From assembly GCA_002369075.1 (NCBI GenBank), contig DFEG01000010.1, forward strand, positions 2-64,001: a DNA stretch of 64,000 bases, written 5' to 3'. Position 1 is the stretch's first letter. Each line of letters begins with the position of its first letter. Below are positions 30,301 through 62,449 of this stretch, piece by piece. Below the pieces are notes generated by a model. It was not told where the DNA came from. It was given only the letters and a program-made list of their open reading frames with translations, and ran no database searches. Made by a program: the position numbers and the translations under genes. The stretch comes from Bacteroidales bacterium UBA3808. GTDB taxonomy: Bacteria; Bacteroidota; Bacteroidia; Bacteroidales; Paludibacteraceae.

Positions 30301-30307
30301 GAAAAAG

Positions 30308-38064: not shown

Positions 38065-38071
38065 TGTAACT

Positions 38072-38842
38072 ATGAAGGATAAATTACTGAAATTAAAGCA
38101 AGACTTGGGACCACTGGATAGTTACTACGATCAATATCCTGAGTTGGATCGCATTATTAACGCGTTAAAGATGTATATTGGTCAATGCCTTCCTAAGGAG
38201 AAGAAAGAATGGGAAGATCGTATAAATGCTATTCAGTATCTATCTCCGATGGTGCAGTTTTCGGGTTACTATGATAAAGAGCGAGATAAGAGCGCCTTCC
38301 AGAAAGGCACCAAATCATTAGCTAATATCATTGATTTAGTCATTGAGCGTATCGAGATGGAAGAGCAACCTGCTCCCGCTAAGCGAAAGGCTAAATGTGA
38401 TAACCCCAACGTCTTTATCGTTCATGGTCACGACGAAGCAATGCGAGAGAAGGTTGCCCGGACAATTGAGAAATTAGAACTTACTGCAATCATTCTTAAC
38501 GAGCAAAGTAATAAAGGACAGACGATCATTGAGAAACTAGAGGAACACTCCAATGTTGGGTTCGCTGTCGTTCTATTGTCCCCTTGCGATGAAGGTAGAA
38601 AGGCCGGTGAAAATGATTGGCTGCCTCGCGCAAGGCAAAATGTCATCGCAGAAATGGGCTACTTCATTGGAAAATTAGGTAGAGATCGAGTTTGTATTTT
38701 GCAGAAAAAAGAGGTTGAAACACCATCTGATTTCACAGGTATCGTATATACTCCGTTTGATGAGAATGATGGCTGGCAATTGAAGTTGGCTAAAGAACTG
38801 AAAGCCGCTGGATATAATGTAAAAATCGAAAATCTATTATAG
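38072..38842 (+). CDS. TIR-like domain protein (PF10137 / COG4271 type, CAP12/Pycsar-effector-like) with a ~110-aa N-terminal helical domain
   Basis: NVFIVHGHDEAMREKV...ILNEQSNKGQTIIEKLEEHSNVGFAVVLLSPCDEG...RARQNVIAEMGYFIGKLGRDRVCIL...PSDFTGIVY...GWQLKLAKELKAAGY. Confidence 0.8.
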   Translation: MKDKLLKLKQDLGPLDSYYDQYPELDRIINALKMYIGQCLPKEKKEWEDRINAIQYLSPMVQFSGYYDKERDKSAFQKGTKSLANIIDLVIERIEMEEQPAPAKRKAKCDNPNVFIVHGHDEAMREKVARTIEKLELTAIILNEQSNKGQTIIEKLEEHSNVGFAVVLLSPCDEGRKAGENDWLPRARQNVIAEMGYFIGKLGRDRVCILQKKEVETPSDFTGIVYTPFDENDGWQLKLAKELKAAGYNVKIENLL

Positions 38843-38844
38843 AT

Positions 38845-41800
38845 ATGTTACCACTCCAACAAGCGTACGAGGTGAAGGAATCGGTGCTGGCCTACATTGA
38901 AGCCACTTTCCGATTCAAAGAAGAGAAAGTGCATAGCGCTTTCTATCAACTCATTCGCGACCCTGAAAACGGACTCTTCAAAGGACCATACATCTCCTTG
39001 AAGACTCCCTTCGTCAAAGCCACTCCCGAAGAAGCCGCAGCTATCCCCTTGGATATCAAGCCAACCGGATTCCTTCCCCATAAGCACCAGCTGCGTAGCT
39101 TCGAGCGACTCACTTCCCGTGACGGGCATCAGCCTCAGCCGACGCTCCTCACCACCGGTACCGGTTCCGGTAAGACCGAGTGTTTCCTCTATCCGATCCT
39201 CGACTACTGCTATCGGCTCAACAAAGATGGTGCACAAAAGGGTATCAAGGTTATCATCATGTACCCCATGAACGCCCTCGCTACCGACCAAGCAACGCGT
39301 CTCGCAGAAGCAATATACAACGATGAAAGACTCCGCGGAGTGGTAACGGCGGGACTCTTCATCGGTGAAGGTGCGGAACGCAAGGCACACGCAACCACGA
39401 TGGGAGAACATAACATCATCGAAGATCGAGACACCATCATCAATACCGCACCGGATATCCTTCTCACCAACTTCAAGATGTTGGATTACGGTCTCATGCA
39501 GCAGCAATATACCAAACTGTGGCACGGCAATGCCAACACCGCAGAACCTATGCTGCGCTATCTCGTCCTCGATGAGTTGCATACCTACGATGGTGCGCAA
39601 GGTACTGATGTCGCTAACCTCATCAGACGTCTCAAACTTAAACTATCGCTCCCCAAACATCATCTCTGTCCGGTTGGCACCAGTGCAACCATCAGCGGTG
39701 GTGAACAGAGCAAGCAGCAACTCATAAGCTACGCTTCCGATGTCTTCGGAGAAGATTTCGACGACCAATCGGTCATTGGTGAAGATCGTGTCGCAATCAA
39801 CGATTTCTTCGATGAATACCTCGACCCCTTTATTCCTTCCGAAGCCGACCTGCAGACCTGCAACGTCCAACTCATGCCGATGCCCGATTATATCCAGCAG
39901 GTACGCCGTATCTGGCTCCCTGGTGCAGGTGATAACCTCGAAGCGATCGGAGAAGGAATACGTTCCCTTACCGTCATTCGTGACCTGCTGAGCATCACCC
40001 AAGAGCATGTCGTTACGGTCGAGCAATTGGAAGACAAACTCGGTGATATCAACCCCGCCTTCCAGCGCCTGCGTCTCAAAGGCAAAGGCAAAAAGGTCAT
40101 CGAGACCATTCTTGCACTCGTTTCCGAAGCACGTGACGGGAAATTCCCGCTGCTCTTCCTCCAGATCCAACTCTGGCAACGAGAACTCAGTGGTGTCGTT
40201 CGCTACGTACAACGCGAACCTGAATTCACATGGCGTAACAGCCTGGAGCAAGACGGTCGTGTCGCGCTCCCAATTTACTTCTGCCGTGACTGCGGTGCAA
40301 GTGGTTGGATCAGCACCAAGAACGCAACCGACTTCCGTTTTGCTACCGACCTCGGTAAGATCAACAAAGCCTTCATGTCCAACGATAAGGACATCGTGCT
40401 CATCAATACCTATGGTCTCAACCATAAACCGATCCCCGACTATCTGGGTGAAGCATCAACCAACGTGGAGGAATATATCCGTCCGCGTGACCTCACCATT
40501 GTCGATAGTTCCGACGATGAAGCAATGCGTATCGTCTATTGCTCCAAACGTCGTGTAGCCAAGAAAACAGGTTCGCAGGCTTTCGTTAAGAACTGTCCGG
40601 AGTGCAACAGCAACTCCCTCGCTATCGTTGGTGGTCGTACCAGCACACTCTCTTCTGTCGCAATCAGTCAGATCATGGCTTCTGACTTCGACGAAAGCGA
40701 TATCGCACAACGCAAAGTGCTCACCTTCACCAATAGCGTCCAAGACGCAGCGCACCAAGCCGGTTTCTACGAGGCACGAACCTATCGTTTCCTCCTTCGT
40801 CAGTCCATACAGCAGTACCTCAAATACCGCTATGAGCAGACGAACGCGCCGATCCGGCTTACCGAATTGCAAGAAGGATTCAAAGCTTATTGGAAAGAAC
40901 ATCTTCCCGGAGATGAGTACTACTATCGCTTCCTTCCGACCGACCTCCTCAACCAAGTCGATCTCAACGAGAACTACCGTGATGCCAACGGTCAGTTCAT
41001 CGAAGCCTTCAAAAAGGAATTCGACCTGCGTATCGATTGGGAGATTTGTGCGGAATTCGGTCTTATGGCGCAACGAGGTCGTACCCTCGAGAAAGTAGGT
41101 TCCAGTGCGTGCTTCTTCGATAAAGAACAACTCGAAGATGTCTTCACCATCATGCAACCATGGATGCGGGAAAACCAACTCGACTATGTCGCAGACGACC
41201 GCCAGCGTTTCCTCCTCTTCCTTAATGGACTCCTCCACCGTATGCGTCTGCGTGGTGCTGTCGATCATCCTTACTATGAGCGATATCGTGGTATCGAGTT
41301 CAAACAAGTGAACCTCAACTGGTCTTTCCAACTGCAACATACCCACTTCCTCAATAAGAAATTCTTCGGCAATGTGCAGTTCCCGAAGTTCTTGCTCACC
41401 CATTACGAGCGGGATCTTTCTGACATACTGGACATCACCGAAATGCAGGGAAATAACGTCAATTGGTACGCCCAGTTCTTCCAACGTTCATTAGAAGGAA
41501 GTCAATTCGGTCAAAAAGCCTATCGTGAAGTGATCAACGATTTCTACCAGCGTCTGCTCGAAGCGATGGTCGAAGCCGGACTCGTCAATCGTGGCAATGC
41601 GGCTAATGGCAACTATGCCATCTGCCCCGAAGCCATCCTCGTAGAACCGCGTGTGAAGCATATCAAATGTGAAGATTGTCAGTCCATGCTCTGTGTGGCG
41701 CAAAGTGATACACTCGCGGAAGGTATTGCCTGTCTGAACTATAACTGCAACGGCTCTTATACCCAAGTACAGCGGAAGGAAGACAACTACTATAAACGCG

Positions 41801-44800
41801 TCTATGACCGAGACAAAGCACCGCGTATCTATGCCCACGAGCACACCGGACTACTCGAACGCTCCAAACGGGAAGAGATTGAGAACGACTTCAAACTGCA
41901 CCCGCATTTCAACTCCATCAATGCCCTCTCTGCTACCAGCACACTCGAGATGGGTATCGACATCGGTACGCTCAACGTCGTCGGCAATACCGACATACCG
42001 CCCAAACCCAGTAACTTCTTACAGCGTATCGGTCGTGCGGGACGTAAATCAGGTACGGCCCTCGTTCTCAACTATGCCCACTCCGATGGAGCACACGATA
42101 TGTTCTACTTCGCCGACCCGCTCGGCATGATGGAAGGAGAAGTGCAGACTCCGGGTTGTTTCTTGCAAGCCAAGGATATTCTCCGGCGTCATTTCTTCGC
42201 GTTCTGTATCGACTCATGGACTTCTGCTGATCCGACGAACACCATTCCGGCGCTCGTCAAACTCATGTCCTTGCGCAGAGATACACTCGCATCGCCCGAT
42301 TTCTTCCTCACGAAGATCCTGGCGTTCATCGATACCAACCGCGATACACTGCTCGCTAAATTCAGGGAACAATATCCGCCGAAAGCAGAAGAATCGCTCG
42401 ATAAACTCCAAGAGACCGTCATCAACGGCGATTTTGCAGAAGCCATCAAAGGGGCCTTCCGTGATCTCATCGAGCGCCACATTAGTACGTTTCGTCGCAT
42501 GAACGATATCGAGTCCCAGATCAATGCACTCGCTGCAAACGATCCGAGACGCGACGCACTCAAAGATGAACTCAAACCGCTCAAACGAGAGATATCCCGT
42601 ATCCTCAATGCCAACGTCATTGAGTTCATGACCAATGCCGGTCTGCTGCCGAACTATGCCTTCCCTGAGACTGGTGTCAAACTGGAAGCAACCGTCTATA
42701 AGCAGAAGCCCGCTGAAGATGAGAGTGTCTCCGAACTTATGCCCGACACCTTCGAACTCGTACGTCCCGCGTCCAACGGTCTCAAAGATCTTGCCCCGGG
42801 AAACCGATTCTATTCGCAGAAATACGAGATGCTGATATCCGGTGTCAATACCTTCGATTGGAATAAGACCCTCGGACGATTCCGTTACTGCTCCGATTGC
42901 GATTGTATCGCTGCCGAAGGAACCGACTGGTTCAACCAGCCTACCTGTCCCAAATGTGGTAGCGCTTCATGGGGTGGAACCGGTAACATCCACCATTTCC
43001 TCCGCTTCACCGGTGCTCGAAGCAGCATGAAACGAACCGATGCAGCTATCAACGACCGTTCCGATGAACGCGAACGCGAAAATTTCCATATCATGAAGCA
43101 TTTCCGCTTCAACTACCATGGTGCAGTCCGCTCCTACGGTCTCAAGAACGTCGGTTTCGGTATTGAGTTCTGTCCGGAAATGGACCTCATGGAGGTCAAC
43201 TACGGACCGCAGATGGCTTCGCAATCGCAAGTACAGATCGAGGGTGCTAAAGTACCGTCGCGTGGATTCATCGTCTGCCGCGAGTGTGGCAAGACGGTCA
43301 CCAAAGAAGTGGCTGACGCAGAAGAATGTCACTATCCTTTCTGCCACCACAAAGATGTACCGTACCCGCCGCATGAGGAAGCTGACATGGATGTCTTCAT
43401 GCCCACCTATCTCTACCGGCGCACTCAAACCGAAGCCATCAAAGTGCTGCTCCCTGTTCATCTACTTGATACCGAAGCTACGGTGCAGATGTTCAAAGCC
43501 GGACTCGAACTCGGCATGCGGTACTACTACCAGAGTAGCCCCGATCATATCCGCATCGATGTATACCGCGAGATGAACCAAGCCACACGCCAGTTCGATA
43601 ACTACCTCATCATCTACGATACCATTCCGGGTGGTACCGGCTATCTCTCGCGACTCCAATCGCCCGAAGAATTCAGCAAACTTCTCACCATCGCCTACGA
43701 GCATATCCGCGATTGTGAGTGCCAACGGCACGGAAAGGATGGGTGCTACCATTGTATCCTCTCTTATGCCAACCAATATATCCGGGAACAACTCAGTCGG
43801 GATCGTGCCGAAGAACTCTTCAAGAAACTCGTCGATGAACTCTCCAACTGGGAAGAGATAGATGGCTCTATCGGAACCGTCACGCAGAGTGGTGTCATCG
43901 AAGATAGCGAACTCGAACGGCAGTTCATCCTCGATATGGATCACTACTGCCGTGCCCACAATGGTTGGACGTGGTCCAAGCAACATGGCGAGAATGGTCT
44001 CTACCATTATATCCTCGATATCAAGCAGAAAGACCGTGCCTTACGTTACGTCATTCGTCCGCAATACCAACTCGGTGAAGCACAAGGCGTCGCCTTATAC
44101 ACCGTGCCTGACTTCCAGATCATCTGTATCAAAGCCATGGTGAACGGACAGAACATAGAGACCGAACGTATCCCGCAGTGGTCTATCTACCTCGACGGCT
44201 ATAGCTTCCATGCCAACTCTGAGTGCATGCGTTTCTATAGCGACTTCGAGAAACGGGAAGCTATTCGTCATAATACGCTCACCCGCATGAACACGTGGAC
44301 GCTCACTTGGGATGATCTCAATATCTTCGAAGGACAAGCAACGGTCGCTGAAGATGGACTCTATAACGGTAACTCCATGAACGGGTTCGCCAATGAGACC
44401 AGACTCGCCAAGAACTCCTTCGAACGACTCTTGCAAATGCTCATCTTGGTCGATATCGATTCAATTCGTTTTGATATCTACAAATACTTAGTTTGTAAGT
44501 CAACCAGTAGTGAGAATATTTGTCCTCCAGAGAGAGTAGAAGATGCTATATTCCTTCACGCTAATGGGGAATTCGCTGACGAAGTGACTCCGCAGATGAG
44601 GCAAAATTGGTCTTTCTTCGTTAAAAATCAATTATTGCAGCGTTCTTCACTCGTCAATGGATCTGCATGGGTGATGCCAAAACAAGGCGTTACTGTACAA
44701 GACAAACTCGAAGATAAGGTATGCTACGACTTCCAGATTGTTCCGAACCTTTCTGTAATCAACAAAGAAGATTGGAATGACTTTTGGCGTCGTTACAATC

Positions 44801-44853
44801 TTCTGCAGTTCTTCAAACTTGTGGGCGATGAAGAATCAGAAATAGAGGAATAA
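38845..44853 (+). CDS. 2002-aa DEAD/DEAH helicase fused to a DUF1998/MZB zinc module (DrmA-DrmB-like fusion) with several zinc ribbons and a C-terminal Vsr/DUF559-like motif
   Basis: LLTTGTGSGKTECF, VLDELHTYDG, LQRIGRAGR, the CRECG...CYHC module, zinc ribbons CRDCG/CPECN and CSDCDC...CPKCG, and the tail VPDFQ...IYLDGYSFH. Confidence 0.8.
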   Translation: MLPLQQAYEVKESVLAYIEATFRFKEEKVHSAFYQLIRDPENGLFKGPYISLKTPFVKATPEEAAAIPLDIKPTGFLPHKHQLRSFERLTSRDGHQPQPTLLTTGTGSGKTECFLYPILDYCYRLNKDGAQKGIKVIIMYPMNALATDQATRLAEAIYNDERLRGVVTAGLFIGEGAERKAHATTMGEHNIIEDRDTIINTAPDILLTNFKMLDYGLMQQQYTKLWHGNANTAEPMLRYLVLDELHTYDGAQGTDVANLIRRLKLKLSLPKHHLCPVGTSATISGGEQSKQQLISYASDVFGEDFDDQSVIGEDRVAINDFFDEYLDPFIPSEADLQTCNVQLMPMPDYIQQVRRIWLPGAGDNLEAIGEGIRSLTVIRDLLSITQEHVVTVEQLEDKLGDINPAFQRLRLKGKGKKVIETILALVSEARDGKFPLLFLQIQLWQRELSGVVRYVQREPEFTWRNSLEQDGRVALPIYFCRDCGASGWISTKNATDFRFATDLGKINKAFMSNDKDIVLINTYGLNHKPIPDYLGEASTNVEEYIRPRDLTIVDSSDDEAMRIVYCSKRRVAKKTGSQAFVKNCPECNSNSLAIVGGRTSTLSSVAISQIMASDFDESDIAQRKVLTFTNSVQDAAHQAGFYEARTYRFLLRQSIQQYLKYRYEQTNAPIRLTELQEGFKAYWKEHLPGDEYYYRFLPTDLLNQVDLNENYRDANGQFIEAFKKEFDLRIDWEICAEFGLMAQRGRTLEKVGSSACFFDKEQLEDVFTIMQPWMRENQLDYVADDRQRFLLFLNGLLHRMRLRGAVDHPYYERYRGIEFKQVNLNWSFQLQHTHFLNKKFFGNVQFPKFLLTHYERDLSDILDITEMQGNNVNWYAQFFQRSLEGSQFGQKAYREVINDFYQRLLEAMVEAGLVNRGNAANGNYAICPEAILVEPRVKHIKCEDCQSMLCVAQSDTLAEGIACLNYNCNGSYTQVQRKEDNYYKRVYDRDKAPRIYAHEHTGLLERSKREEIENDFKLHPHFNSINALSATSTLEMGIDIGTLNVVGNTDIPPKPSNFLQRIGRAGRKSGTALVLNYAHSDGAHDMFYFADPLGMMEGEVQTPGCFLQAKDILRRHFFAFCIDSWTSADPTNTIPALVKLMSLRRDTLASPDFFLTKILAFIDTNRDTLLAKFREQYPPKAEESLDKLQETVINGDFAEAIKGAFRDLIERHISTFRRMNDIESQINALAANDPRRDALKDELKPLKREISRILNANVIEFMTNAGLLPNYAFPETGVKLEATVYKQKPAEDESVSELMPDTFELVRPASNGLKDLAPGNRFYSQKYEMLISGVNTFDWNKTLGRFRYCSDCDCIAAEGTDWFNQPTCPKCGSASWGGTGNIHHFLRFTGARSSMKRTDAAINDRSDERERENFHIMKHFRFNYHGAVRSYGLKNVGFGIEFCPEMDLMEVNYGPQMASQSQVQIEGAKVPSRGFIVCRECGKTVTKEVADAEECHYPFCHHKDVPYPPHEEADMDVFMPTYLYRRTQTEAIKVLLPVHLLDTEATVQMFKAGLELGMRYYYQSSPDHIRIDVYREMNQATRQFDNYLIIYDTIPGGTGYLSRLQSPEEFSKLLTIAYEHIRDCECQRHGKDGCYHCILSYANQYIREQLSRDRAEELFKKLVDELSNWEEIDGSIGTVTQSGVIEDSELERQFILDMDHYCRAHNGWTWSKQHGENGLYHYILDIKQKDRALRYVIRPQYQLGEAQGVALYTVPDFQIICIKAMVNGQNIETERIPQWSIYLDGYSFHANSECMRFYSDFEKREAIRHNTLTRMNTWTLTWDDLNIFEGQATVAEDGLYNGNSMNGFANETRLAKNSFERLLQMLILVDIDSIRFDIYKYLVCKSTSSENICPPERVEDAIFLHANGEFADEVTPQMRQNWSFFVKNQLLQRSSLVNGSAWVMPKQGVTVQDKLEDKVCYDFQIVPNLSVINKEDWNDFWRRYNLLQFFKLVGDEESEIEE

Positions 44854-44871
44854 CTCAAAATATAGTCGTGT

Positions 44872-45849
44872 ATGCAAGTTATCAAGAAAACATTTGAGTA
44901 TTTCACGGCAGAAAAGTACTGCGATTTGGAATATGGTACAATCTATTATGTGCCCGGAACATCCTCGCACGAACTCAACGACTATATCTGCGCACGTGCC
45001 GACGAGATAGCCGCTCAGCTCAACAACGATGACCGTAACTGGGTCACATGCCGTATCGTCTACCTCACAAAAGACAATCCTCTCTTTGCTCCGTCCTCAA
45101 AACCTACGCTGCACAGCGCCATGTTACCGACGAGCGATACGCCCGCAAACGCATGCAGTTTCCTAAAGGCATCGCTGGACATCACCGAACCTTCCATTGT
45201 CGAAGACGCTCTCATCGAGTATTTCCGCACCTTGCAGCTGATGTTCGATGATATCTTGGACAAAGGCACGTGTAGCCATTATCTTCTGACTAGTACGATA
45301 CTCTCGCCCGTCGATGATCAGATTCGCTTCTCTGTTTCCCGTCGGGAGATGGATTTCGATGAAAATCGTATTAAAACTTGCGAGTGTCTCGACATGGCGT
45401 ACGAGGAAGAAGATGTTGAGCATTTCGACTATCCGAGTCGCCTCGAAATCACACCTAATACCTTCCAAGTGCTCCTACCGGACTACCATCGGGAAATCAA
45501 GTTCAACGCGCAGATTAAAGCCCTGTACGTACTCTTTCTTAACCACCCGGAAGGCATTCGCATGAAGGAAATCGGCGACTACAAAGAGGAGTATAAGCAA
45601 CTTTATCTATATTTCACTAATCGTGGTAATCTGGAACAGTTACGCCTCGCTGTCGATAAACTCTTCGATGCGTATAACCCCAATACCCTCAATGTCAAAA
45701 AATCCCAATGCAGCGAGCAATTAAGAATTGCTATTCCAGAAGATAACTTGCGACAATACTATGAGATTCAAGTTCATCGCGGCGAACCCCACAAGATCAA
45801 CCTCGACCGCTCCCTTGTCTCTATGCCTGATTTCTTGCACCAACTATAG
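44872..45849 (+). CDS. Hypothetical protein, last gene of the DISARM-like operon
   Basis: 325-aa ORF 19 nt after the helicase stop. No recognisable motif. The C-terminal third (ALYVLFLNHPEGIRMKEIG) could be wHTH-like. Confidence 0.5.
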   Translation: MQVIKKTFEYFTAEKYCDLEYGTIYYVPGTSSHELNDYICARADEIAAQLNNDDRNWVTCRIVYLTKDNPLFAPSSKPTLHSAMLPTSDTPANACSFLKASLDITEPSIVEDALIEYFRTLQLMFDDILDKGTCSHYLLTSTILSPVDDQIRFSVSRREMDFDENRIKTCECLDMAYEEEDVEHFDYPSRLEITPNTFQVLLPDYHREIKFNAQIKALYVLFLNHPEGIRMKEIGDYKEEYKQLYLYFTNRGNLEQLRLAVDKLFDAYNPNTLNVKKSQCSEQLRIAIPEDNLRQYYEIQVHRGEPHKINLDRSLVSMPDFLHQL

Positions 45850-45899
45850 TTTGTAACGTTACAAACATTTGCTTGCCTCGTATAAAAGCAGTACCTTTG
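45848..45899 (+). promoter_or_regulatory. Palindrome-promoter cassette 1 (AGTTTGTAACGTTACAAAC, TTTG, 20 nt, TACCTTTG)
   Basis: Palindrome at 45848-45866 overlapping the TAG stop at 45847-45849. -33 at 45868-45871 and -7 at 45892-45899. Confidence 0.7.
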
Positions 45900-45923
45900 C
45901 ACCGGATTTAAAACAACCCGACC

Positions 45924-46889
45924 ATGACCCAAGAACAAGACATAAGTAAACTGGATTTGCTATTTACGGAAATTGATACGTACCGTAGCAGTAAATTCTT
46001 CAAAAGGTTGATCGAATTCTGCGCCCGCTTTAAGACGCTGGCACCATACAACGCAATGCTTGTGCGCTTCCAAATGCCGGGTGCTCGTTATGTATTGACC
46101 TCTGCCGAATGGAGATCCAGATATCACCGCGGCGTGAAAGCAAAAGCAAGACCGTTAATCATCCTTGTGCCCTTTGGACCGGTGAATTTCGTGTTCGACA
46201 TCAAGGATACGTATCCTCTATCTCCTGATGATCCAAACACCACGGAGCAGATTCTGAAAGCGATGGAAAATCCTTACGCAACGCACGGGGAATTCAACAG
46301 ACAGTATCTTCATTTTCTCGAAAACAACCTGCAATATCATGGTATAGCTTACAATCCTAATTGGGAAACCGGTTCTACGGTGGCTGGAGAGCTCAAGCCA
46401 CTGCCGAATTCTTCAGAATACATGAAAGTTTATATTCCTTTTAGGAAAGGAGAGTTTCCTGTGCAGTCAAAGGCTCATTACGTTTTGAGCACCAGCAGTG
46501 ACGGCCATGATGGACAAACATTGGCCACTATTGCACATGAGTTGGGACATCTATTCTGCAATCATCTGCCCGCGCCCAAAGGTTGGAAGCATGCTTGGGC
46601 AGAAAGAGACATCGAATCCGAAGCCAAAGAATTTGAAGCAGAAGTGGTCTCATGGTTTATATGCGACAGATTGGGAATAAAGACTCCTTCTCACGAATAT
46701 CTCAGTGGCTTTTTGAAAAGCAATGATGAAATCCCCAAAGGAGCAAGCGTAGAAAGAATATTCTATGCCATCACTAAGGTGTGGGAAATGTGTTATAATG
46801 TGAACTTCACGTATAGAAATGGTTTGTTATACAAAAACGACGAGAAGTTTCAGGATGACGTCAAAGCAATAATAGAAAAGAACAAATAA
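45924..46889 (+). CDS. HExxH zinc metallopeptidase (ImmA/IrrE-like; the N-terminal half is possibly ArdC-N-like)
   Basis: ATIAHELGHLFCNH. The N-terminal PYNAMLVRFQMPGARYVLTSAEWRSRYHRGVKAKARPLIIL resembles the ArdC/DUF1738 pattern, judged by eye. Confidence 0.55.
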   Translation: MTQEQDISKLDLLFTEIDTYRSSKFFKRLIEFCARFKTLAPYNAMLVRFQMPGARYVLTSAEWRSRYHRGVKAKARPLIILVPFGPVNFVFDIKDTYPLSPDDPNTTEQILKAMENPYATHGEFNRQYLHFLENNLQYHGIAYNPNWETGSTVAGELKPLPNSSEYMKVYIPFRKGEFPVQSKAHYVLSTSSDGHDGQTLATIAHELGHLFCNHLPAPKGWKHAWAERDIESEAKEFEAEVVSWFICDRLGIKTPSHEYLSGFLKSNDEIPKGASVERIFYAITKVWEMCYNVNFTYRNGLLYKNDEKFQDDVKAIIEKNK

Positions 46890-47341
46890 TGGATACCCCT
46901 AAGAAAATAGTATATGTGGACATGGATAATGTCCTTGTCGATTTCCAGAGCGGGATAGATGCCATGCAAGACGTCATTACGTCAGAGTATGACGGTCGCA
47001 TTGACGAAGTGCCGCATATCTTTGCACACATGGAACCGCTCCCCGGCGCCGTTGAAGCCTACCGCGCCTTGTGCGAAAAATATGATTGTTATATCCTCAG
47101 CACTTCTCCTTGGAGCAACCCTACCGCTGCAAGCGATAAGTTCGATTGGGTTAAGAAATATCTTGGCGATGTTGCCTATAAGCGTCTAATCCTCTCGCAC
47201 CACAAGAACCTCAATCGTGGTGACTATCTGATCGATGATCGCCCTAACAAATGTGGTGCCGACCTCTTTGAAGGCGAAGTAATTCCTTTTGGCAGCGACC
47301 AATTCCCCAACTGGGATGCAGTATTGAAGTATTTATTGTAA
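46889..47341 (+). CDS. 5'(3')-deoxyribonucleotidase (NT5C family, HAD superfamily)
   Basis: HAD motif I (VYVDMDNVLVDF), ILSTSPW, and the C-terminal DYLIDDRP. Confidence 0.7.
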   Translation: MDTPKKIVYVDMDNVLVDFQSGIDAMQDVITSEYDGRIDEVPHIFAHMEPLPGAVEAYRALCEKYDCYILSTSPWSNPTAASDKFDWVKKYLGDVAYKRLILSHHKNLNRGDYLIDDRPNKCGADLFEGEVIPFGSDQFPNWDAVLKYLL

Positions 47342-47363
47342 TGAAATAATTAATAGCTAATTT

Positions 47364-48134
47364 ATGGTACTATATCAAGTTCTCAGATGGTGTTTTATTA
47401 TAGCAGCAATTCTGGCATTCGCTGGATTGTGCATAAACTCCTCAAATGCAGGCGGTGAGTATGTGCAAAACAATTTTTTACGTAGAAACATCGTCTTGTG
47501 TCTATGTGTAATGCTTTGCGCTTATTTATTGGATAATTCTTTTAGGATGTTATCTATCATCTTGCTATTGGGGGTTGTTTTCTTTTTGGTGGTGTTTATA
47601 ATAGAAGCCTTCAAAACAAGGAAAATCAATGATGCAATACGATATGGTATTAAAGGTACCTATTGGACAAAATATTATGATGACGATTACGGTAAGTTCT
47701 ACTTGGTAAGAAGATACACTTATCTTCATAACTTGGGTAAATGTTCAGATTCTGATAATAGAGAGGAGTATTATGGATTATTGGACTTATATGACAATGA
47801 AACGCATAAGTTTGTTCGTACCGTATCTAAAGAATTGCTATGGGAGATGATTAAGAAGCATATCAGTAAAGATAAGGTGCATTCACGTATGAAGACATAC
47901 TGCGACTTTGCAATAATGTATCCTAAATTGCAATATAGTGCATATAGGATAGATGTAAAAAAATTCAAGGACATTGCTGCGCAGTATGGTGCCGAGCATA
48001 ATATTACAATTGAATATGAGTTTGTATCATCTGGGAACGAATTATACCTAATGATATATAATCAAGATATCTCTCAATTGAAAAAAGATTTGCCGGAGTT
48101 AATGAATTTAGCTGACGAATATCGTAGTTTGTAA
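47364..48134 (+). CDS. Membrane-anchored hypothetical protein (3 N-terminal TM helices plus a soluble domain)
   Basis: Hydrophobic segments within residues 1-85. AT-rich codon usage. Confidence 0.5.
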   Translation: MVLYQVLRWCFIIAAILAFAGLCINSSNAGGEYVQNNFLRRNIVLCLCVMLCAYLLDNSFRMLSIILLLGVVFFLVVFIIEAFKTRKINDAIRYGIKGTYWTKYYDDDYGKFYLVRRYTYLHNLGKCSDSDNREEYYGLLDLYDNETHKFVRTVSKELLWEMIKKHISKDKVHSRMKTYCDFAIMYPKLQYSAYRIDVKKFKDIAAQYGAEHNITIEYEFVSSGNELYLMIYNQDISQLKKDLPELMNLADEYRSL

Positions 48135-48177
48135 CGTTACAAACTTTTGGGTGTCTCCCAAAATTGTAGTACTTTTG
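48126..48177 (+). promoter_or_regulatory. Palindrome-promoter cassette 2 (AGTTTGTAACGTTACAAACT, TTTG, 20 nt, TACTTTTG)
   Basis: Perfect 20-bp palindrome at 48126-48145 overlapping the TAA stop at 48132-48134. -33 at 48146-48149 and -7 at 48170-48177. Confidence 0.7.
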
Positions 48178-48212
48178 CAGTGGATTTCAAAATCTGCTGC
48201 AATTTTTGTATT

Positions 48213-49805
48213 ATGATGAACGTTAATTCCAATATGAGAGACATGCTTCACTACCCAAAATTTCAAATGGGTATAGTGAAAGATTTTACGCTGGGTTTCA
48301 TTAAACGACACCCGCAAGTGAAGCAAGAGCAACTGACGGTGGCCTTGGATCTGAGTAAAGCTGTCCATGTCATCACCAACATCTTCCTCAAAGAAGCGGC
48401 ACGCGGTCATATCTTCTATGACACACTTTTCTTATCCCTCTTGTCCAAACAAGAACTTCCCGCGTCTTTTTATATGGAAGACCGCCGCATCGCCAGTTTC
48501 TTCGCGCACAAGAGTGCTTTCCAAGATATGGATTGGGACTTCATCTATAAATACACGACCTACCATGTCAAGGCCTATCTGCTCTGCTACGATTTCTGTA
48601 ACGACATGTTGAGACATTATGATGAACTGATAAACGACCTCTACGTGATCAGTTGTATCTCAAGCCTCTCTTCCAAACAAGAAATCTATCGAGCACAATC
48701 GGCAACGGAGATCCTCACCAATGCTATTCAATCACATGCCAATGAACTTATCCGAACGATGGAACACAAAGGACAACTCCCTTACGTCCACACATCTAAC
48801 AACCTCGATGAGATCCTTGCCCGTCTTCCCAAACAACCCGAACTGCCACAATCGCTCTCTTACAAACCTATCGTGTCAGTAGACGATGATATAAGAATCG
48901 ATGTAACCGGTCCTGCGAAAGGAAAGAAGACCGAACCAAAGAGTGAACCAACGAATATCTTTGATAACCAATCTGCTCGTCCAAAAGGCTTTTCTGCTAT
49001 AGCGGGAATGACCGAACTCAAAGATAAATTCCGCTCCGATATCATCGACGTATTACGTGAACCGGAACGAGCCAGAGCATTAAACATCACACTGCCCAAT
49101 GGCGCCCTTCTATACGGTCCTCCGGGTTGTGGCAAGACGTTCTTTGCGGAGAAACTGGCTGAAGAAGCAGGGTGTCATTTCATAACAGTTAACTGCTCCG
49201 ATATCGCTTCTACTTTTATCCACGGCACACAAAAACTCATCGCGGAGAAGTTTGCCGAAGCTGAGGAAAACAAACCTTCCATCATCTTCTTCGATGAGAT
49301 TGACGCGATGATTCCCAAACGCAATGCACGCGGTTCTGAATACACTAAGACCGAAGTGAATGAGTTCCTCACTCAGCTCAATCATTGTGGTCGTAAAGGA
49401 ATAATCGCTATAGGAGCTACGAACCGCCCGCAAGATGTGGACGAAGCAGCACTCCGCTCAGGCCGTTTGGAATTGAAATATTACCTTCCGGAACCGGATA
49501 GAGAGACACGTCTGGTGATGTTCGGCATCAATCTGCATCATACCTCGTTTAGAGGCAGTATCGATCTGGAGAAGTTAGCAGATCAGACTGAAGGCTATGT
49601 ATCTGCCGATATCGAACGAATTGTCGCAGAAACCAAACGCACCGCCTTCCGCAAAAGAATGGATCATATCACGATGGACATGCTGGAAGAAACTATCCGA
49701 ACAACCAAACCATCTGTACCCAAATCTACAATCAAAGAATGTGAAGCCATTCGTGATAAGTTCGAAGGCCGCAAACCCGAATACCAACGTATTGGATTCT
49801 GTTAA
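48213..49805 (+). CDS. Classical-clade AAA+ ATPase (CDC48/FtsH-like module) with a ~270-aa N-terminal domain of unknown function
   Basis: Walker A GPPGCGKTFFAEKLAEE, Walker B IIFFDEIDAM, and SRH ATNRPQDVDEAALRSGRLE. Start taken at the ATG at 48213, downstream of the promoter. Confidence 0.8.
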   Translation: MMNVNSNMRDMLHYPKFQMGIVKDFTLGFIKRHPQVKQEQLTVALDLSKAVHVITNIFLKEAARGHIFYDTLFLSLLSKQELPASFYMEDRRIASFFAHKSAFQDMDWDFIYKYTTYHVKAYLLCYDFCNDMLRHYDELINDLYVISCISSLSSKQEIYRAQSATEILTNAIQSHANELIRTMEHKGQLPYVHTSNNLDEILARLPKQPELPQSLSYKPIVSVDDDIRIDVTGPAKGKKTEPKSEPTNIFDNQSARPKGFSAIAGMTELKDKFRSDIIDVLREPERARALNITLPNGALLYGPPGCGKTFFAEKLAEEAGCHFITVNCSDIASTFIHGTQKLIAEKFAEAEENKPSIIFFDEIDAMIPKRNARGSEYTKTEVNEFLTQLNHCGRKGIIAIGATNRPQDVDEAALRSGRLELKYYLPEPDRETRLVMFGINLHHTSFRGSIDLEKLADQTEGYVSADIERIVAETKRTAFRKRMDHITMDMLEETIRTTKPSVPKSTIKECEAIRDKFEGRKPEYQRIGFC

Positions 49806-49837
49806 TATATTGTCTAACCCTCAAAAATTATTGAACT

Positions 49838-50545
49838 ATGGAAACAACTGCAAAAACCCAAGTCTACAACCTCGTTATCCTCGACAAATCCGGTTCCATG
49901 GAATCGATCCGCAAAGAAGCCATTGACGGCTACAACGAAACACTCGGCACAATACGTGCTGCCCAACTCAAACACATGGATACTCAAGATCATTTCGTCT
50001 CACTCGCGGCTTTCTGCGGTTGCGGCATCGAGATGATCTACGACAAAACACCCATCAAAGACGCCGATAAACTAACTCGGGAAAAGTACGAACCCTGTTG
50101 CAGCACTCCTCTCTTTGATGCCATCGGTTCTACCATCAAAAAACTCAAACACGATATTAAAGATATCGAAGACGCGGCTGTCCTCGTTACAGTCATCACC
50201 GACGGGTACGAAAATTCGTCCAAAGAATGGACCGGTCCGGCTATCAAGAAACTCGTTGACGAGTGCAAGCAAGACGGTTGGATGTTTGCCTTCATCGGTT
50301 CCGGAGAAGACGTCCTTAAAGTGGCCACTACTATCTCCATCACTAACACCCTCAACTGGGAGAAGACGCGCCGTGGTACTGAGGTTATGTTCTCCCTTGC
50401 CAGCGAAGCCAGCGAACGGTTCTATGACAAGATGGCCATTAACGAATGTATCAATGAAAACTATGAAGACCGCAAACGTAAGCGTCGGCAGTTTGCTGAA
50501 GAGTATTTCGATGAAGAAAAGAAACCCGATGCCCCATGCAAATAA
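49838..50545 (+). CDS. von Willebrand factor A (vWA, TerY-like size) domain protein
   Basis: MIDAS motif LVILDKSGSM; 235 aa. Confidence 0.7.
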   Translation: METTAKTQVYNLVILDKSGSMESIRKEAIDGYNETLGTIRAAQLKHMDTQDHFVSLAAFCGCGIEMIYDKTPIKDADKLTREKYEPCCSTPLFDAIGSTIKKLKHDIKDIEDAAVLVTVITDGYENSSKEWTGPAIKKLVDECKQDGWMFAFIGSGEDVLKVATTISITNTLNWEKTRRGTEVMFSLASEASERFYDKMAINECINENYEDRKRKRRQFAEEYFDEEKKPDAPCK

Positions 50546-50994
50546 CCAATTACACATTCGCGAACATTACCGCTCGTCCGTTCTTGACACTCAATGATGC
50601 CAACAACCCATGGATCTTAACAGACTCCACCAAACACATTATTGACGTGTGCATGTACCGAGAACCGGAACTACAAGATCTCTTTCGTGCAAAAGGCATA
50701 ACCTTCGATTGGTTCCCTACCGATGAACAGCCGATGGATCTGGATATGGTACTCAGAGCGGTCGCCAAACTCGCCGAGTATGATCGTGATGGCTCACATA
50801 TCATCGTACATTGTTTAGGTGGTAACAACCGCTCTCGAACTGTCGTTGAAGCCTTCCACTTCGCAAAACTTGGCACGCATTTTGAAGATGAGTATAAAGG
50901 CTGCACGAACCACCTCATCTGGAACTGCGAGCAAGGCTATTTACCTCCTCTATCGGAGATGGAAAAATTATTGACTAAAATAAAAGACCATTGA
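50536..50994 (+). CDS. Cys-based (CX5R) dual-specificity/tyrosine protein phosphatase-like protein
   Basis: IIVHCLGGNNRSRTV matches HCxxGxxRS/T. Overlaps the vWA gene by 10 nt. Confidence 0.65.
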   Translation: MQITNYTFANITARPFLTLNDANNPWILTDSTKHIIDVCMYREPELQDLFRAKGITFDWFPTDEQPMDLDMVLRAVAKLAEYDRDGSHIIVHCLGGNNRSRTVVEAFHFAKLGTHFEDEYKGCTNHLIWNCEQGYLPPLSEMEKLLTKIKDH

Positions 50995-50997
50995 CTT

Positions 50998-51660
50998 ATG
51001 AAAAAGATTTTATTTGTACTTTCTCTGCTGGTGTCATTAGGCATCTACGCACAGAACAGTAATGAAGAAGCATTGCAGGATCTTATCAATGTTCGCCAAA
51101 AGAGCATTGAGTTTTACAAGTCATATCCGCAACAATTGGCGGACGCTGCTCGCAGTTTGGAAAACCCCAACGTGGTCTATGACCCGTCCTATGTAAGAAT
51201 TGCATATCCCAATGGAGATGTGGCTTCCGACCATGGTGTCTGCACTGATGTGGTTATCCGTGCTTTCCGTAAAGCTTGGGGATGGGATTTGCAGAAAACT
51301 ATCTATGAGTTTCAGAAAGAGCAGTTCCCTAATCGCAAGTTAGATAGAAACATCGACCACCGTCGCGTGCGTAATCTTATGGAGTTCTTTGATGCGTACT
51401 TTGATATGACCCAACTCTACAACACCTATGAGAATGAATATCGCAAAGGGAATATAATTATTTGGGATTTAGGTGGCGGTCAACTGCATATAGGTATCTG
51501 TGTAGCCAACGATACCATTATTCATAATATCTGTTGCGGACAGGTAATTGAACCGATGTATATGCAGGACAGAGTTATACGCAATTATTCGTTCGAACCT
51601 GACTTTCATCGGACAATCATGACTGGTTATATGAGACAATGGGAAGATTTATCGAAATAA
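50998..51660 (+). CDS. DUF1287 domain-containing secreted protein
   Basis: Signal peptide, then YPNGDVASDHGVCTDVVIRAFRKAWGWDLQK...HIGIC, the DUF1287 pattern. Confidence 0.65.
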   Translation: MKKILFVLSLLVSLGIYAQNSNEEALQDLINVRQKSIEFYKSYPQQLADAARSLENPNVVYDPSYVRIAYPNGDVASDHGVCTDVVIRAFRKAWGWDLQKTIYEFQKEQFPNRKLDRNIDHRRVRNLMEFFDAYFDMTQLYNTYENEYRKGNIIIWDLGGGQLHIGICVANDTIIHNICCGQVIEPMYMQDRVIRNYSFEPDFHRTIMTGYMRQWEDLSK

Positions 51661-51914
51661 TTTGCATAACGATTCAGCAGAAATGTCGGCGGCATTATTT
51701 GGGATGTGGGTCGCTACCACGTTTCACGTTGCGGTTTCTGCCATCTTGCAATGACAGTGGCATTGTTAGCGTGTAGGGTCGCAACCTTGCTCTACGTAGC
51801 GGTTGCAAGGAATCGTTTCAAAGAGACGTCTGCGGCTTTGTTGGCGCAAGGTTAACACCTACTCCATGTAGCGGTCTCTTTGGCTCCCGAAGTTCACCCT
51901 TCGGGAGTTTTTTT
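51661..51914 (+). ncRNA. Candidate structured RNA or 3'-UTR element ending in a strong intrinsic terminator
   Basis: Nested helices: 51668-75/51810-17, 51678-83/51735-40, 51781-86/51801-06 and 51820-27/51874-81. Three (A/C)(C/T)GT(T/A)GCGGT repeats. The terminator is ctcccgaa/ttcgggag plus T7 (51884-51914). Confidence 0.4.
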
Positions 51915-51959
51915 CTTTCCTAAAATTTTCTGCTTAAACACTTACATTCTGCAAATAAA

Positions 51960-51991
51960 TTTGCACATGTCAATTTTTTTTTGTACCTTTG
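51960..51991 (+). promoter_or_regulatory. Promoter (TTTG, 20 nt, TACCTTTG) of the PARG-like/NUDIX operon
   Basis: -33 at 51960-51963 and -7 at 51984-51991. Confidence 0.6.
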
Positions 51992-52020
51992 CGCCGATAA
52001 CGACGCAAACAAACAGAAAC

Positions 52021-52845
52021 ATGGATCGCAGAGCATATCTTATATCGGTTTTTGACGATACGTTGGAGCGTATCAATGGTGACTTTGAATTGCACAAAGC
52101 GCAGCAGCAATCCATAGCCGCGCAGAAGCTGATTCTCGAAAAGGAATCGTTAGATATTCCGGCACCAAGGTTTGACGAGAAGGCACAAGTCCTTGTGACG
52201 AAGAACCGTTCCTTTGAAGCAGCAGCGCAATACATGGAGCAACATGTGTGCGTGCTGAATTTCGCTTCGGCAACTAATCCCGGCGGAGGTGTGACGCATG
52301 GTTCGTCCGCACAAGAGGAATGTCTGTGCCGTTGCTCCACCTTATACAACTGCCTGAACACGCGCGCCATGTGGGATGGGTTCTACACGCCGCATCGTCA
52401 TTCCGGCAATCCGTTGCATAACGATGACATCATCTTCACGCCCAACGTACAAGTGCTAAAAGACGATGACTACCAGCCATTGGTGGACCCGTTTGCGGTG
52501 GATGTCATCACTTGTGCGGCACCGAACCTCCGTGAGCAACCGGCTAATCCCTATAATCCGGACGACGGCGATTCGAAGCGCATCAGCAAGGACAAGTTGT
52601 ACCAACTGCACAAGCAACGTGCACGTCGTATCTTAACGGTGGCTGCGCAGAACGAAGCAGATGTGCTAATATTGGGCGCGTTTGGTTGCGGAGCCTTCCA
52701 GAACGACCCGCAAGTGGTGGCTCGTGCATACAACGATGTGCTGGCAGAGTTCAGCCATCATTTCCGAACGATTGAGTTTGCGGTCTATTGCCGCCCGCAC
52801 GACGACAGCAACTACCGCGCATTTAAGGAGATTATAAGAGTATGA
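52021..52845 (+). CDS. TIGR02452/DUF2263 family protein (microbial PARG-like macrodomain fold)
   Basis: VLNFASATNPGGGVTHGSSAQEECLCRCSTLY and LILGAFGCGAFQNDP. Confidence 0.7.
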   Translation: MDRRAYLISVFDDTLERINGDFELHKAQQQSIAAQKLILEKESLDIPAPRFDEKAQVLVTKNRSFEAAAQYMEQHVCVLNFASATNPGGGVTHGSSAQEECLCRCSTLYNCLNTRAMWDGFYTPHRHSGNPLHNDDIIFTPNVQVLKDDDYQPLVDPFAVDVITCAAPNLREQPANPYNPDDGDSKRISKDKLYQLHKQRARRILTVAAQNEADVLILGAFGCGAFQNDPQVVARAYNDVLAEFSHHFRTIEFAVYCRPHDDSNYRAFKEIIRV

Positions 52846-53307: not shown

Positions 53308-53628
53308 ATGATAGTTACTACCACACCCACCATTGAGGGTCACACCATTAAGGAGTACAAAGGTCTTGTTTCCGGAGAGGTTATCTTCGGCATGAACTTC
53401 CTGAAGGACTTTGGCGCGTCGCTTCGTGATTTCTTCGGAGGACGTACCGACAGTTATGAAAAAGCTATGCTCGAAGGACGCGAGACCGCGCAGAAAGAGA
53501 TGCGCGAGCGCGCTGAGAAACTGGGTGCCAATGCCATCGTGGGTGTTAGCTTTGGCTATGAGACGATGGGTCAAGCCAACAGTATGATTATGATCTCCAT
53601 CAGCGGCACAGCCGTTGTGATTGACTAA
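53308..53628 (+). CDS. YbjQ/UPF0145 family protein
   Basis: TTTPTIEGHTIKEYKGLVSGEVI...FFGGR...GANAIVGV. Confidence 0.85.
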   Translation: MIVTTTPTIEGHTIKEYKGLVSGEVIFGMNFLKDFGASLRDFFGGRTDSYEKAMLEGRETAQKEMRERAEKLGANAIVGVSFGYETMGQANSMIMISISGTAVVID

Positions 53629-53834
53629 TGAAGTTAGAGGAAGCGATAACATATGCCATCATGTCGGATGGTCATGGAAAGACGACTGACCAGATAGCCG
53701 CCGCTATCAACCGCAATGGTTGGCACATCCGCAAGGACGGCAAGCCCGTCACGAGTGCACAGGTCTATGCCTGTATTTGCCGTTATCCTTCCATCTTCAC
53801 TAAAGAGGCAGGCAGAATCTGCGTGATGTTATAG
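53628..53834 (+). CDS. Small hypothetical protein (possible winged-helix)
   Basis: 68-aa ORF overlapping the ybjQ-like stop codon. Confidence 0.4.
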   Translation: MKLEEAITYAIMSDGHGKTTDQIAAAINRNGWHIRKDGKPVTSAQVYACICRYPSIFTKEAGRICVML

Positions 53835-61210: not shown

Positions 61211-62449
61211 TTAGAACTCCGGAGCTATCTTATTGATACGTTCAATAAGGCTCTCATCAATGTGATTGGCGTAGCGGAAAGTCATACTAAGGTCGCTGTG
61301 GCCAACTATTTGAACGACGTCCAAATCGGTTGCACCAGCTTTCAATAGGTTGTTAATTCCGCTATCACGGAGAGAGTAGAGTTGATATTCTCTCGGCAAC
61401 TTCAATGCTGCTCTCATTCGATCCCAAATGATAGTGAATGAGTGCGAAGCAGCAGGAGTCTGGCTCGGTTTCCATGTGCCGGCGCCAAAGACGAAATCAT
61501 CCGGTTGGGCTCCACGAATATGGTCACGTAATAAGGCTTCCAATTTATCATCCATACGACAGTTATGGTCTTTGCCGTTTTTCTTCTGCGATCCTTTCAT
61601 TTCGATACAATGTTTCTCGAAGTTCAGTTGTTCAACTTTGACGCGAGTAATCTCTACCGGACGCAGGAAGGATTTATACACCAGTTGCATGACGATGATG
61701 AATGCAGGATTCTTTTCCCTAAAGTATGCAACAATTCTGTCGCGAACTTCCTTGGGGATAATGGTACGATCTTTACCCTGCGCTTTCTTTTGTTTGAGGT
61801 GTTCAAACGGATTGACACGGGCGTAACTCTTTTCCATCGCCCAACTAAACAACGCACGCGCGAGCTTTATATTATTGTTGTACGTACGCGGACTTACGCG
61901 ATCTTCCCTTATTTTCTTGCGGACAGACTTCTTGCCTTTCGAGTTGTTGCCAAGAAGCACGAACTCCATGTACTGGTTCGCCTGCGTCTGCGAGAAAACG
62001 GAAGCGGCAATAGATGGACAGTTATTATGCACCCATTGCTTGAATTGTTTACAGAAGCAACTATAGCTTCGCATAGTCGTTTCTTTCAACTCACCACATC
62101 GATCTTTTTCATACAGGTCAATTACCTGCTCCAACGGAGTGTAAAAGCGAACATTATCACCCGTATAACTCTCCTGCGTACCGATTCCGTAGGCAGGGAT
62201 GTTTTGCTGAAGATTGATAAAACCGGCAGCAAGTTGATTGTTGATTTGAAGAATAATAGCGCTGGTCTGCAATTTGAACTCAGTAAGAGTCTTGCAGCGC
62301 TTACGCTCGCGGTTCATCATCAGACGAACGCGCTCTAAGTCTTGAACGATAGGGTTAAGCTTGTAGTACTCGATGTACCAACCTTTAGAATTGTGTTTGA
62401 GCTCTGCGGGAACAAATTGCCTTAGGGCTCCAAAATTTTGAACCAACAT
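61211..62449 (-). CDS. int: Tyrosine-type site-specific integrase
   Basis: C-terminal catalytic pattern ...LYSLRDSGINNLL...IVGHSDLSMTFRYANH. It lies adjacent to the tRNA 3' end. Start taken at the internal ATG (62449) of ORF 61211-62524. Confidence 0.9.
   Translation of the reverse strand: MLVQNFGALRQFVPAELKHNSKGWYIEYYKLNPIVQDLERVRLMMNRERKRCKTLTEFKLQTSAIILQINNQLAAGFINLQQNIPAYGIGTQESYTGDNVRFYTPLEQVIDLYEKDRCGELKETTMRSYSCFCKQFKQWVHNNCPSIAASVFSQTQANQYMEFVLLGNNSKGKKSVRKKIREDRVSPRTYNNNIKLARALFSWAMEKSYARVNPFEHLKQKKAQGKDRTIIPKEVRDRIVAYFREKNPAFIIVMQLVYKSFLRPVEITRVKVEQLNFEKHCIEMKGSQKKNGKDHNCRMDDKLEALLRDHIRGAQPDDFVFGAGTWKPSQTPAASHSFTIIWDRMRAALKLPREYQLYSLRDSGINNLLKAGATDLDVVQIVGHSDLSMTFRYANHIDESLIERINKIAPEF

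Follow-up and report, generated by a model that had tools for sequence, protein, structure and literature searches.

A palindrome-promoter cassette repeated along gene arrays headed by an uncharacterised protein family in Bacteroidales

The window analysed here, that is, the whole stretch of 64,000 nucleotides (nt) from Bacteroidales bacterium UBA3808 (assembly GCA_002369075.1, contig DFEG01000010.1, positions 2 to 64,001), contains a gene array that begins with a protein of 325 amino acids (aa), belonging to an uncharacterised family designated F1, and in which each of the two modules that follow is headed by the same cassette: a palindromic motif joined directly to the -33 element of a sigma-A type promoter. 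This cassette anatomy, with the motif conserved and exclusively linked to F1, recurs along F1-headed arrays of rumen and gut Bacteroidales. On the comparative sequence data, the reading that motif and promoter form an F1-specific operator fused to a sigma-A promoter, with F1 reading the motif and the modules of an array being switched together, has in our judgement a little more for it than against it. We infer that F1 binds the motif and that this binding controls RNA polymerase.

Two cassette copies in the window

44872-45849, + strand: F1 gene (325 aa, uncharacterised family, candidate regulator), the first gene of the array, with the motif at its stop codon
45848-45866, no strand given: motif copy 1, AGTTTGTAACGTTACAAAC, by direct sequence reading
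45868-45899, + strand: sigma-A type promoter P1 (-33 TTTG at 45868-71, 20-nt gap, -7 box TACCTTTG at 45892-99)
48126-48145, no strand given: motif copy 2, a 20-bp perfect palindrome, AGTTTGTAACGTTACAAACT, by direct sequence reading
48146-48177, + strand: sigma-A type promoter P2 (-33 TTTG at 48146-49, 20-nt gap, -7 box TACTTTTG at 48170-77)

Every coordinate that a preliminary description of this DNA had given for palindromes, stop codons and promoter boxes was rechecked in the window sequence, and all of them are correct, including the overlaps with the stop codons and the exact 20-nt gap between TTTG and TAnnTTTG. The perfect palindrome of copy 1 comprises 18 bp (GTTTGTAACGTTACAAAC, 45849-45866); the copy overlaps the TAG stop codon (45847-45849) of the F1 gene, and copy 2 contains the TAA stop codon (48132-48134) of the gene for a 256-aa protein, the invariant core AACGTTACAAAC lying at 45855-45866 and 48133-48144, respectively. 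The match between the two copies is not due to chance, since the 16-mer core has only these two sites in the window, even with up to three mismatches (0.33 expected at that looseness), and the likeness spans about 66 nt (45846-45914 versus 48124-48192), taking in AGTACYTTTGCA-NN-GGATTT-N-AAA, for which the chance expectation is 0 matches. A literature search with the palindrome sequence returned unrelated papers only.

As for the promoter half of the cassette, the Bacteroides consensus consists of a -33 TTTG and a -7 TAnnTTTG (reviewed in PMC12632263). Both copies satisfy the Bacteroidota sigma-A pattern (TTTG and TAnnTTTG(Y), at a spacing of about 19-21 nt), both -7 boxes reading TA(CC/CT)TTTGC, and transcription is predicted to start near 45904-45907 from P1 and near 48182-48185 from P2. 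The pattern TTTG-N18-21-TAnnTTTG occurs 11 times in the window for 0.76 expected (a 14-fold enrichment), mainly between open reading frames (ORFs), which indicates that it is the working promoter consensus of this organism. The A-rich tract ahead of the -7 box and the -7 region itself are common to the ordinary promoters of the same contigs. The -33 context of ordinary promoters, in the window and on those contigs, is TTTGCATATGTCA and never GTTACAAAC, the 9-mer that precedes the -33 in the cassettes.

Conservation of the cassette and its link to F1

Related loci (numbered here with the prefix L) were retrieved both by pattern and by protein. A scan of genomes, one per species, with the palindrome plus TTTG as the query, returned 14 loci, nine of which are rumen and gut Bacteroidales and Paludibacteraceae metagenome-assembled genomes (MAGs) with the same full cassette, the palindrome standing in all nine either where an F1 homologue ends, at the stop codon, or later in an F1-headed array. 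A scan of metagenomes with the proximal half plus the promoter gave 29 additional loci, several of them with two to three tandem cassettes. The set that is free of bias towards the motif was retrieved by the F1 protein alone, and comprises nine lineages with 42-81% identity to the window protein (L015, L016, L018, L050, L051, L052, L054, L056 and L066). In all nine the cassette is found behind the F1 gene, and most carry more cassettes downstream; likewise, every one of the 34 pattern-derived loci holding F1 has a cassette directly behind it, mostly at about 2-25 nt from the stop codon. The number of cassettes per array is three in L015 and L051 and reaches its maximum, five, in L055.

F1 is the sole family common to all arrays, and no other protein tracks the motif across the cassette loci. 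From the candidate regulators put forward in the preliminary description, the XRE protein (21004-21585) and the 68-aa protein (53628-53834) drop out, as neither has a homologue in any other cassette locus, and the 325-aa protein is retained, as it always co-occurs with the motif and shows weak winged-helix-like evidence in its C-terminal part. OmpR-family regulators were sought in the retrieved loci and none was found.

About 73 unique cassettes, spread over more than 50 related loci, were found on contigs of rumen and gut Bacteroidales, with the consensus (TTTGT)AAC followed by GTTACAAAC, TTTTG, 18 variable nt and AGTAYYTTTGCA; where the dyad is complete, it reads TTTGTAAC on one side and GTTACAAA on the other. 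The invariant part is the promoter-proximal half, AAC plus GTTACAAAC, together with its zero-nt junction to the T-run of the -33. The distal half, TTTGT, is present in 38 of 70 copies (54%) and has one mismatch in seven more, about 55-65% of the copies being palindromic overall, and the remaining distal halves are unrelated (CAAAT, TAAAC, CACAA and others), so that symmetric half-sites are not conserved in all copies. In consequence, the idea of one dimeric regulator, as it was first proposed, survives in part: a shared sequence-specific regulator fits the comparative data, but an obligate symmetric dimer does not follow from them. The 18-nt spacer between the -33 and the -7 varies freely while the motif stays fixed, which argues that the motif is held by selection and not just by recent copying, and the unit can be regarded, as had been claimed, as a conserved palindrome-promoter element heading separate modules. 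Furthermore, some 10 cassettes have a degenerate -33 (TTTTT, TTTAG or TTTCT) and keep the motif intact. Cassettes can also be shared in full, since L015 and L035 have an identical copy of that of P2, spacer included, ahead of their AAA ATPase gene.

In 505,559 nt of Bacteroidales loci, each AACGTTACAAAC site has a promoter at a fixed distance and in a single orientation, there are no orphan sites outside F1 arrays, and the few lone GTTACAAAC 9-mers lacking the AAC prefix are chance-like. F1's own promoters, where present, are of the generic type and lack the motif. A search of related genomes for further sites had been suggested at the outset, and the many Bacteroidales loci that it returned are all F1-headed arrays with cassettes in one orientation; a dispersed mobile repeat, in the manner of miniature inverted-repeat transposable elements or repetitive extragenic palindromes, was rejected on that basis for the Bacteroidales loci scanned. 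The site also varies together with the protein: two remote full-length F1 homologues (profile E 3e-52 and 1e-35) have altered motifs in the same position, followed by a -7 box, which read GTAACATAC-TTTTC in L069 and GTAACAAAC-TTTTTG in L070. Rfam contains no family matching the cassettes, nor the closing element and non-coding tails described below.

The genome-scan matches outside Bacteroidales are L003 and L011, from a Eubacteriales MAG, and the chance-like L009, L013 and L014. In L003, copies of the 16-mer TTTGTAACGTTACAAA alternate in tandem with GGTACAGGGGTGTACC at 536-700, immediately ahead of a parA-parB operon, and L011, a second contig of the same MAG, has two 16-mer copies (1017-1044) ahead of unrelated genes. 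We take the tandem array for a probable centromere, of a plasmid or of a chromosome, with no relation to the cassette of Bacteroidales.

The F1 protein

F1 has at least 212 homologues and no sequence match in Pfam (E<=0.01), NCBIfam, PADLOC or the PDB; scanning 65 members of the family singly, as well as a profile of the C-terminal domain, gave no identity in any of the four either. Its AlphaFold2 model has two domains (pLDDT 86) joined by a disordered linker (residues 148-179) and, at full length, no meaningful Foldseek neighbour in the PDB. The best-conserved part of F1 is the C-terminal domain (residues 185-325, window 45424-45846), whose separate model (pLDDT 88) has a sole high-probability Foldseek match, the OmpR-family protein BaeR (4b09_A; probability 0.85, TMq 0.51, E 0.3). 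A profile of this domain aligns by hhalign with PhoB DNA-binding domains over 65 columns (pairwise E 0.0046, probability 7.5%), from helix 1 (KAVYxLFLRHPEGI versus EFKLLHFFMTHPERV) to the recognition helix (NEKxSRIKxAF versus VDVHIRRLRKAL). On the negative side, hhalign of the F1 profile against single PhoB and OmpR sequences was insignificant, a PDB profile search with F1 returned no OmpR-family chain, and PF00486 (Trans_reg_C) is not among the 25 most-matched of the 33 families hit by the 65 members at E<=10. From the models and alignments, we read the C-terminus of F1 as a probable winged-helix DNA-binding domain that weakly resembles the OmpR/PhoB kind.

This domain belongs to a superfamily that neither Pfam nor NCBIfam models and that comprises at least 2,249 clusters at 50% identity, across which the N-termini joined to it vary, some of them having TPR repeats; the IMG/VR contig L060 encodes two C-terminal-domain paralogues in tandem. 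At the other end of the gene, the first 88 nt are 90% identical to those of L015, which appears to be due to amino-acid conservation only.

Proposed regulation and alternative explanations

In the proposed mechanism, the cassette would be a portable promoter, in which a protein-binding motif is joined gaplessly to the -33 of an ordinary Bacteroidota sigma-A promoter, and such a cassette would stand before every module of an array that runs in one direction and opens with the F1 gene. The C-terminal winged helix of F1 would read the motif, its N-terminal domain would sense a signal, and all the modules of the array would be switched at once. The balance tips slightly towards activation by F1, given that the site is in contact with the -33, as in PhoB-type activators, and that the roughly 10 cassettes with a weakened -33 keep the motif. 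Repression from the same position is possible by analogy, as class I operators of KorB repress from such a position, and the cassette promoters are themselves close to consensus.

Several observations weigh against F1 as the reader of the motif. Both pattern scans demanded the motif, so part of the sample was ascertained by it; F1 matches none of the sequence models of DNA-binding domains that were tried, and the Foldseek E of 0.3 and the hhalign probability of 7.5% are both below significance; the distal half-site is absent in about one third of the copies, which is unusual for a dimeric operator; and the core promoter, being near consensus, might work unaided by an activator. Finally, distant C-terminal-domain proteins in IMG/VR viral contigs have no motif behind them, which indicates that the link to the motif is specific to the F1 subfamily.

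Could the motif be read by RNA polymerase itself? As a UP-like element or an extended -33, it would make strong promoters without the intervention of another protein, and its link to F1 would merely reflect the common descent of the arrays. The zero spacing to the -33 in every copy, the near-consensus -33 and -7 boxes, the dispensable distal half of the dyad and the fact that F1 has no DNA-binding domain demonstrable by sequence all agree with such an element. However, the generic promoters use the TTTGCATATGTCA context in its place, an element read by the polymerase should also occur beyond F1 arrays (none does in the 505 kb), a perfect dyad in 54% of the copies behind many different upstream genes is not predicted, and remote F1 homologues carry altered motifs, all of which makes this explanation unlikely.

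An operator serving some other regulator, with its gene in the host genome or in the element and with F1 as the first regulated or anchoring gene, would accommodate the position of F1 upstream of the first cassette and not downstream of one, and it takes advantage of the inferential nature of F1 binding. Nonetheless, the arrays stand in unrelated contexts, such as an apparent integrative and conjugative element after DruE (the window), rpsL/rpsG (L067), ldh (L015) or AbiE, which the array follows in L016, with no second gene common to them, and the motif is altered where F1 is remote. We therefore regard an outside regulator as improbable.

We likewise give little credence to the cassette being mainly a recombination junction, a stretch of portable homology or an unrecognised site-specific system, maybe with the participation of F1, that shuffles modules in the manner of integrons. 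In its support, the arrays are modular and a given module can have different neighbours in front of it, the breakpoints of homology coincide with one side or the other of the cassette, left of AAC or after the -7 (L015 versus L037; L022, L026 and L030), window module 1 is bracketed by direct cassette repeats, and the identical stretches, of 12-17 nt, are short for RecA-dependent exchange. Yet no array encodes a recombinase domain, F1 shows no structural resemblance to recombinases, the breakpoint positions are not fixed, and each cassette is a complete promoter, enough alone to explain its conservation. A broader form of this explanation, which we hold to be a long shot, would see in F1 arrays an unrecognised cassette-collecting platform of Bacteroidales, with promoter-bearing modules, often defence-like, inserted or exchanged at an AACGTT-centred site, F1 as an organiser (regulator plus recombination accessory or recombinase) and a 62-nt element plus terminator marking the distal end; if true, F1 arrays would work much as integrons do but without an integron integrase, every cassette supplying a regulated promoter of its own.

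The preliminary description also considered that the palindrome may be an AU-rich intrinsic terminator hairpin of the upstream gene, which is very improbable, since, although copy 2 folds (-6.6 kcal/mol, z -2.1) and is followed by UUUUG, the stem is weak, with one G-C pair per arm, the 5' arm is missing in about one third of the cassettes while the 3' arm is invariant in sequence (a structure would drift with compensation), and the terminator scan did not call the palindrome and gave a far better terminator, previously unnoticed, at 48175-48202.

If F1 does read the motif, a large unmodelled protein superfamily (the at least 2,249 clusters mentioned above) would gain a function, the 12-nt tag AACGTTACAAAC plus a promoter would serve to recognise accessory modules under common regulation in uncultured Bacteroidales of rumen and gut, and the arrays would illustrate how new modules can be kept under a single switch in a mobile gene array.

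The hairpin at the predicted P2 start site

48175-48207, + strand: terminator-like hairpin (stem 48175-48202; 12 bp with two G-U pairs), followed by TTTTT

The 5' arm of this strong hairpin overlaps the -7 box of P2 and the predicted start. Copy 1 lacks such a hairpin; the same feature is found in 16 of 55 cassettes (about 30%), and the compensatory and G-U changes among them (for example, CAGCGGA/TCCGCTG versus CAGCAGA/TCTGCTG) indicate an RNA structure. A read-through RNA coming from the upstream module would carry the whole hairpin and be terminated; in an RNA begun at the promoter of the cassette, the 5' arm would be absent and termination avoided. Hairpins that extend from the TG of the -7 box across the predicted start are common in the clade, generic promoters included (e.g., TTTGCACGCAAAACGTGCAAAC), and they are seen at 48175-48207 of the window and at the F1 promoters of L015, L024, L027 and L040; stopping read-through transcripts and a structure at the DNA level are both possibilities for their role. 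If confirmed, a promoter embedded in a terminator would be a compact insulation of neighbouring modules, with possible use in Bacteroides engineering. A different hairpin, located in the spacer between the -33 and the -7 (TTTTGGG...CCCAAAA in copy 2), was dropped as a general feature (45 spacers, mean z -0.8, p<=0.05 in seven).

Modules and array architecture

45924-48134, + strand: module 1, three genes, from profile searches
45924-46889, + strand: 321-aa zincin/M78/CapP-like protein of module 1, from weak profile matches
46889-47341, + strand: NT5C-type nucleotidase of module 1, from profile searches
47364-48134, + strand: 256-aa protein of module 1, with no function assigned in profile searches
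48213-51660, + strand: module 2, from profile searches, encoding a CDC48/IetA-like AAA ATPase, a 235-aa vWA-like protein, a DSPc phosphatase and a DUF1287 protein

Profile searches and clustering of the ORFs of the loci reveal a uniform architecture, in which F1 is followed by a cassette, a module, another cassette, another module and so on, in one direction and with up to five cassettes, the first of them abutting the F1 stop codon and the subsequent ones heading each later module. Across arrays, the cargo includes HsdR-like proteins with a methylase, a UvrD-like helicase, the zincin plus NT5C pair (behind a cassette in at least 15 loci), the AAA, vWA-like and DSPc combination, the vWA-like protein alone, lipoproteins and non-coding stretches; homologues of the 235-aa protein are found behind a cassette in 24 loci. 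Many of the modules look defence-related, namely those with type I restriction-modification, helicases, the AAA ATPase with its vWA-like and phosphatase partners, and the zincin with the nucleotidase. The 321-aa protein of module 1 has weak matches to zincins, Peptidase_M78 (ImmA/IrrE) and CapP (E about 1e-3), and, if it were a regulator-cleaving protease, the F1 linker (148-179) would be an obvious target.

The two modules occur together in the window, L015, L054, L055 and L066-68, and each is found elsewhere without the other, so a shared cassette does not imply joint function. Indeed, the earlier suggestion that they work together is not sustained, as zincin plus NT5C and AAA plus vWA-like plus phosphatase stand apart or are combined otherwise in many arrays; their co-regulation is plausible. 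The array can also travel whole, since window 44871-51660 is 92% identical to L066-L068, which have other surroundings (e.g., rpsL/rpsG). The last cassettes of L051 (4883-6290), L022, L023, L026, L031 and L055 drive long gene-less stretches, and among the elements of such tails are repeated stem-loops, GCAATACC...GTTTGAAGGGTATTGC (L051 has three copies), as well as the recurrent GATTTCGGATTGTTAGATGTGGGAAC.

The end of the array and its surroundings

51820-51882, + strand: 62-nt closing element, with a strong intrinsic terminator behind it (stem 51882-51909 and a T-run, to 51915), from the terminator scan and alignment

Across 12 arrays, the closing element (AAAGAGAyGTC...GGTCTCTTTG, with an outer stem of 8 bp) keeps 88-97% identity, against only 65-75% for their coding sequences, and it could represent a small RNA or a fixed boundary at the distal end of the array. 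The preceding non-coding stretch, 51661-51819, opens with TTTGCA right behind the stop codon of the DUF1287 gene, is homologous to the DNA behind the last cassette in L008 and L039 and has no counterpart in L066, which is otherwise 92% identical; it has the appearance of a relic left by a third cassette, from which a non-coding transcript was driven. The PARG-NUDIX genes beyond the array have a generic promoter of their own at 51960-51991. The listed 321-aa PARG ORF (51880-52845) begins at a TTG inside the terminator hairpin, and its real start is probably the ATG at 52021; gene callers give a PARG of 292 aa on identical contigs.

The window as a whole looks like an integrative element, with a tyrosine integrase (61211-62524) adjoining tRNA-Leu and tRNA-Gly genes and, upstream, a DnaG-type primase, an ArdA protein and a Schlafen/AlbA ATPase. 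Directly upstream of F1, a large defence cluster (28432-44853) encodes a GHKL-type ATPase (HATPase_c), an SNF2 helicase, an Eco57I-type methylase of 1650 aa, a TIR protein of the CAP12/Pycsar type and a DruE-like helicase of 2002 aa that has an MZB domain and whose gene is directly followed by that of F1. The cluster resembles Druantia or DISARM, without their standard gene set.

Comparison with known systems

Among conventional regulators, a close parallel is offered by the PhoB/OmpR activators at pho-box promoters, in which a winged helix occupies a fixed site that touches or replaces the upstream promoter element of several operons, and the modelled C-terminal domain of F1 appears to have the same order of secondary-structure elements. 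Unlike them, F1 has neither a receiver domain nor a PF00486 match, carries an insertion between helices 2 and 3, and belongs to a separate, unmodelled superfamily, and the site in F1 arrays is often an inverted and not a direct repeat.

An element-encoded activator of Bacteroides is RteC, from CTnDOT, which binds upstream of a -33/-7 promoter and switches on the excision operon (PMC3809561). RteC binds 50-70 nt upstream of a single promoter, whereas the site described here abuts the -33 and is repeated before each module, and F1 has no match to the RteC Pfam family. In IncP plasmids, the ParB-family repressor KorB recognises identical palindromic operators (OB) just upstream of the -35 of several operons, which is likewise a coordinated control of mobile-element modules by one element-encoded protein. 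Nevertheless, KorB operators occur in both orientations, F1 is unrelated to KorB, and F1 arrays are strictly one-directional, with one cassette per module.

A comparison with integrons is suggested by the fixed first gene, the one-directional exchangeable modules and the repeated imperfect palindrome between them. However, the repeat of F1 arrays is a whole promoter at the module head and not an attC at the tail, the modules are multigenic and the junction positions are not fixed. An integron was rejected, as no recombinase domain is encoded in or beside the arrays and the modules carry their own promoters; the sole integrase of the window (61211-62524) lies 9.5 kb from the array, beside the tRNA genes.

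Regarding defence islands, BrxR/CapW, CapH-CapP and Aca-acr also have a dedicated regulator gene adjoining defence-like cargo and a conserved palindrome at the cargo promoter (for the logic of Aca-type regulatory sequences, see PMC11065993), and CapH-CapP has a possible further counterpart in module 1 of the window, which opens with the weak CapP/ImmA-like zincin. In contrast to these systems, F1 arrays have no WYL or short helix-turn-helix protein, the candidate regulator gene lies upstream and is co-directional, the operator-promoter is reused up to five times per array, and the zincin is absent from many arrays. The model best supported by the sequence comparisons is thus a familiar regulator-operator-promoter logic, for which these arrays, modular and defence-like, apparently use a protein family not characterised before and a portable cassette that recurs along them.

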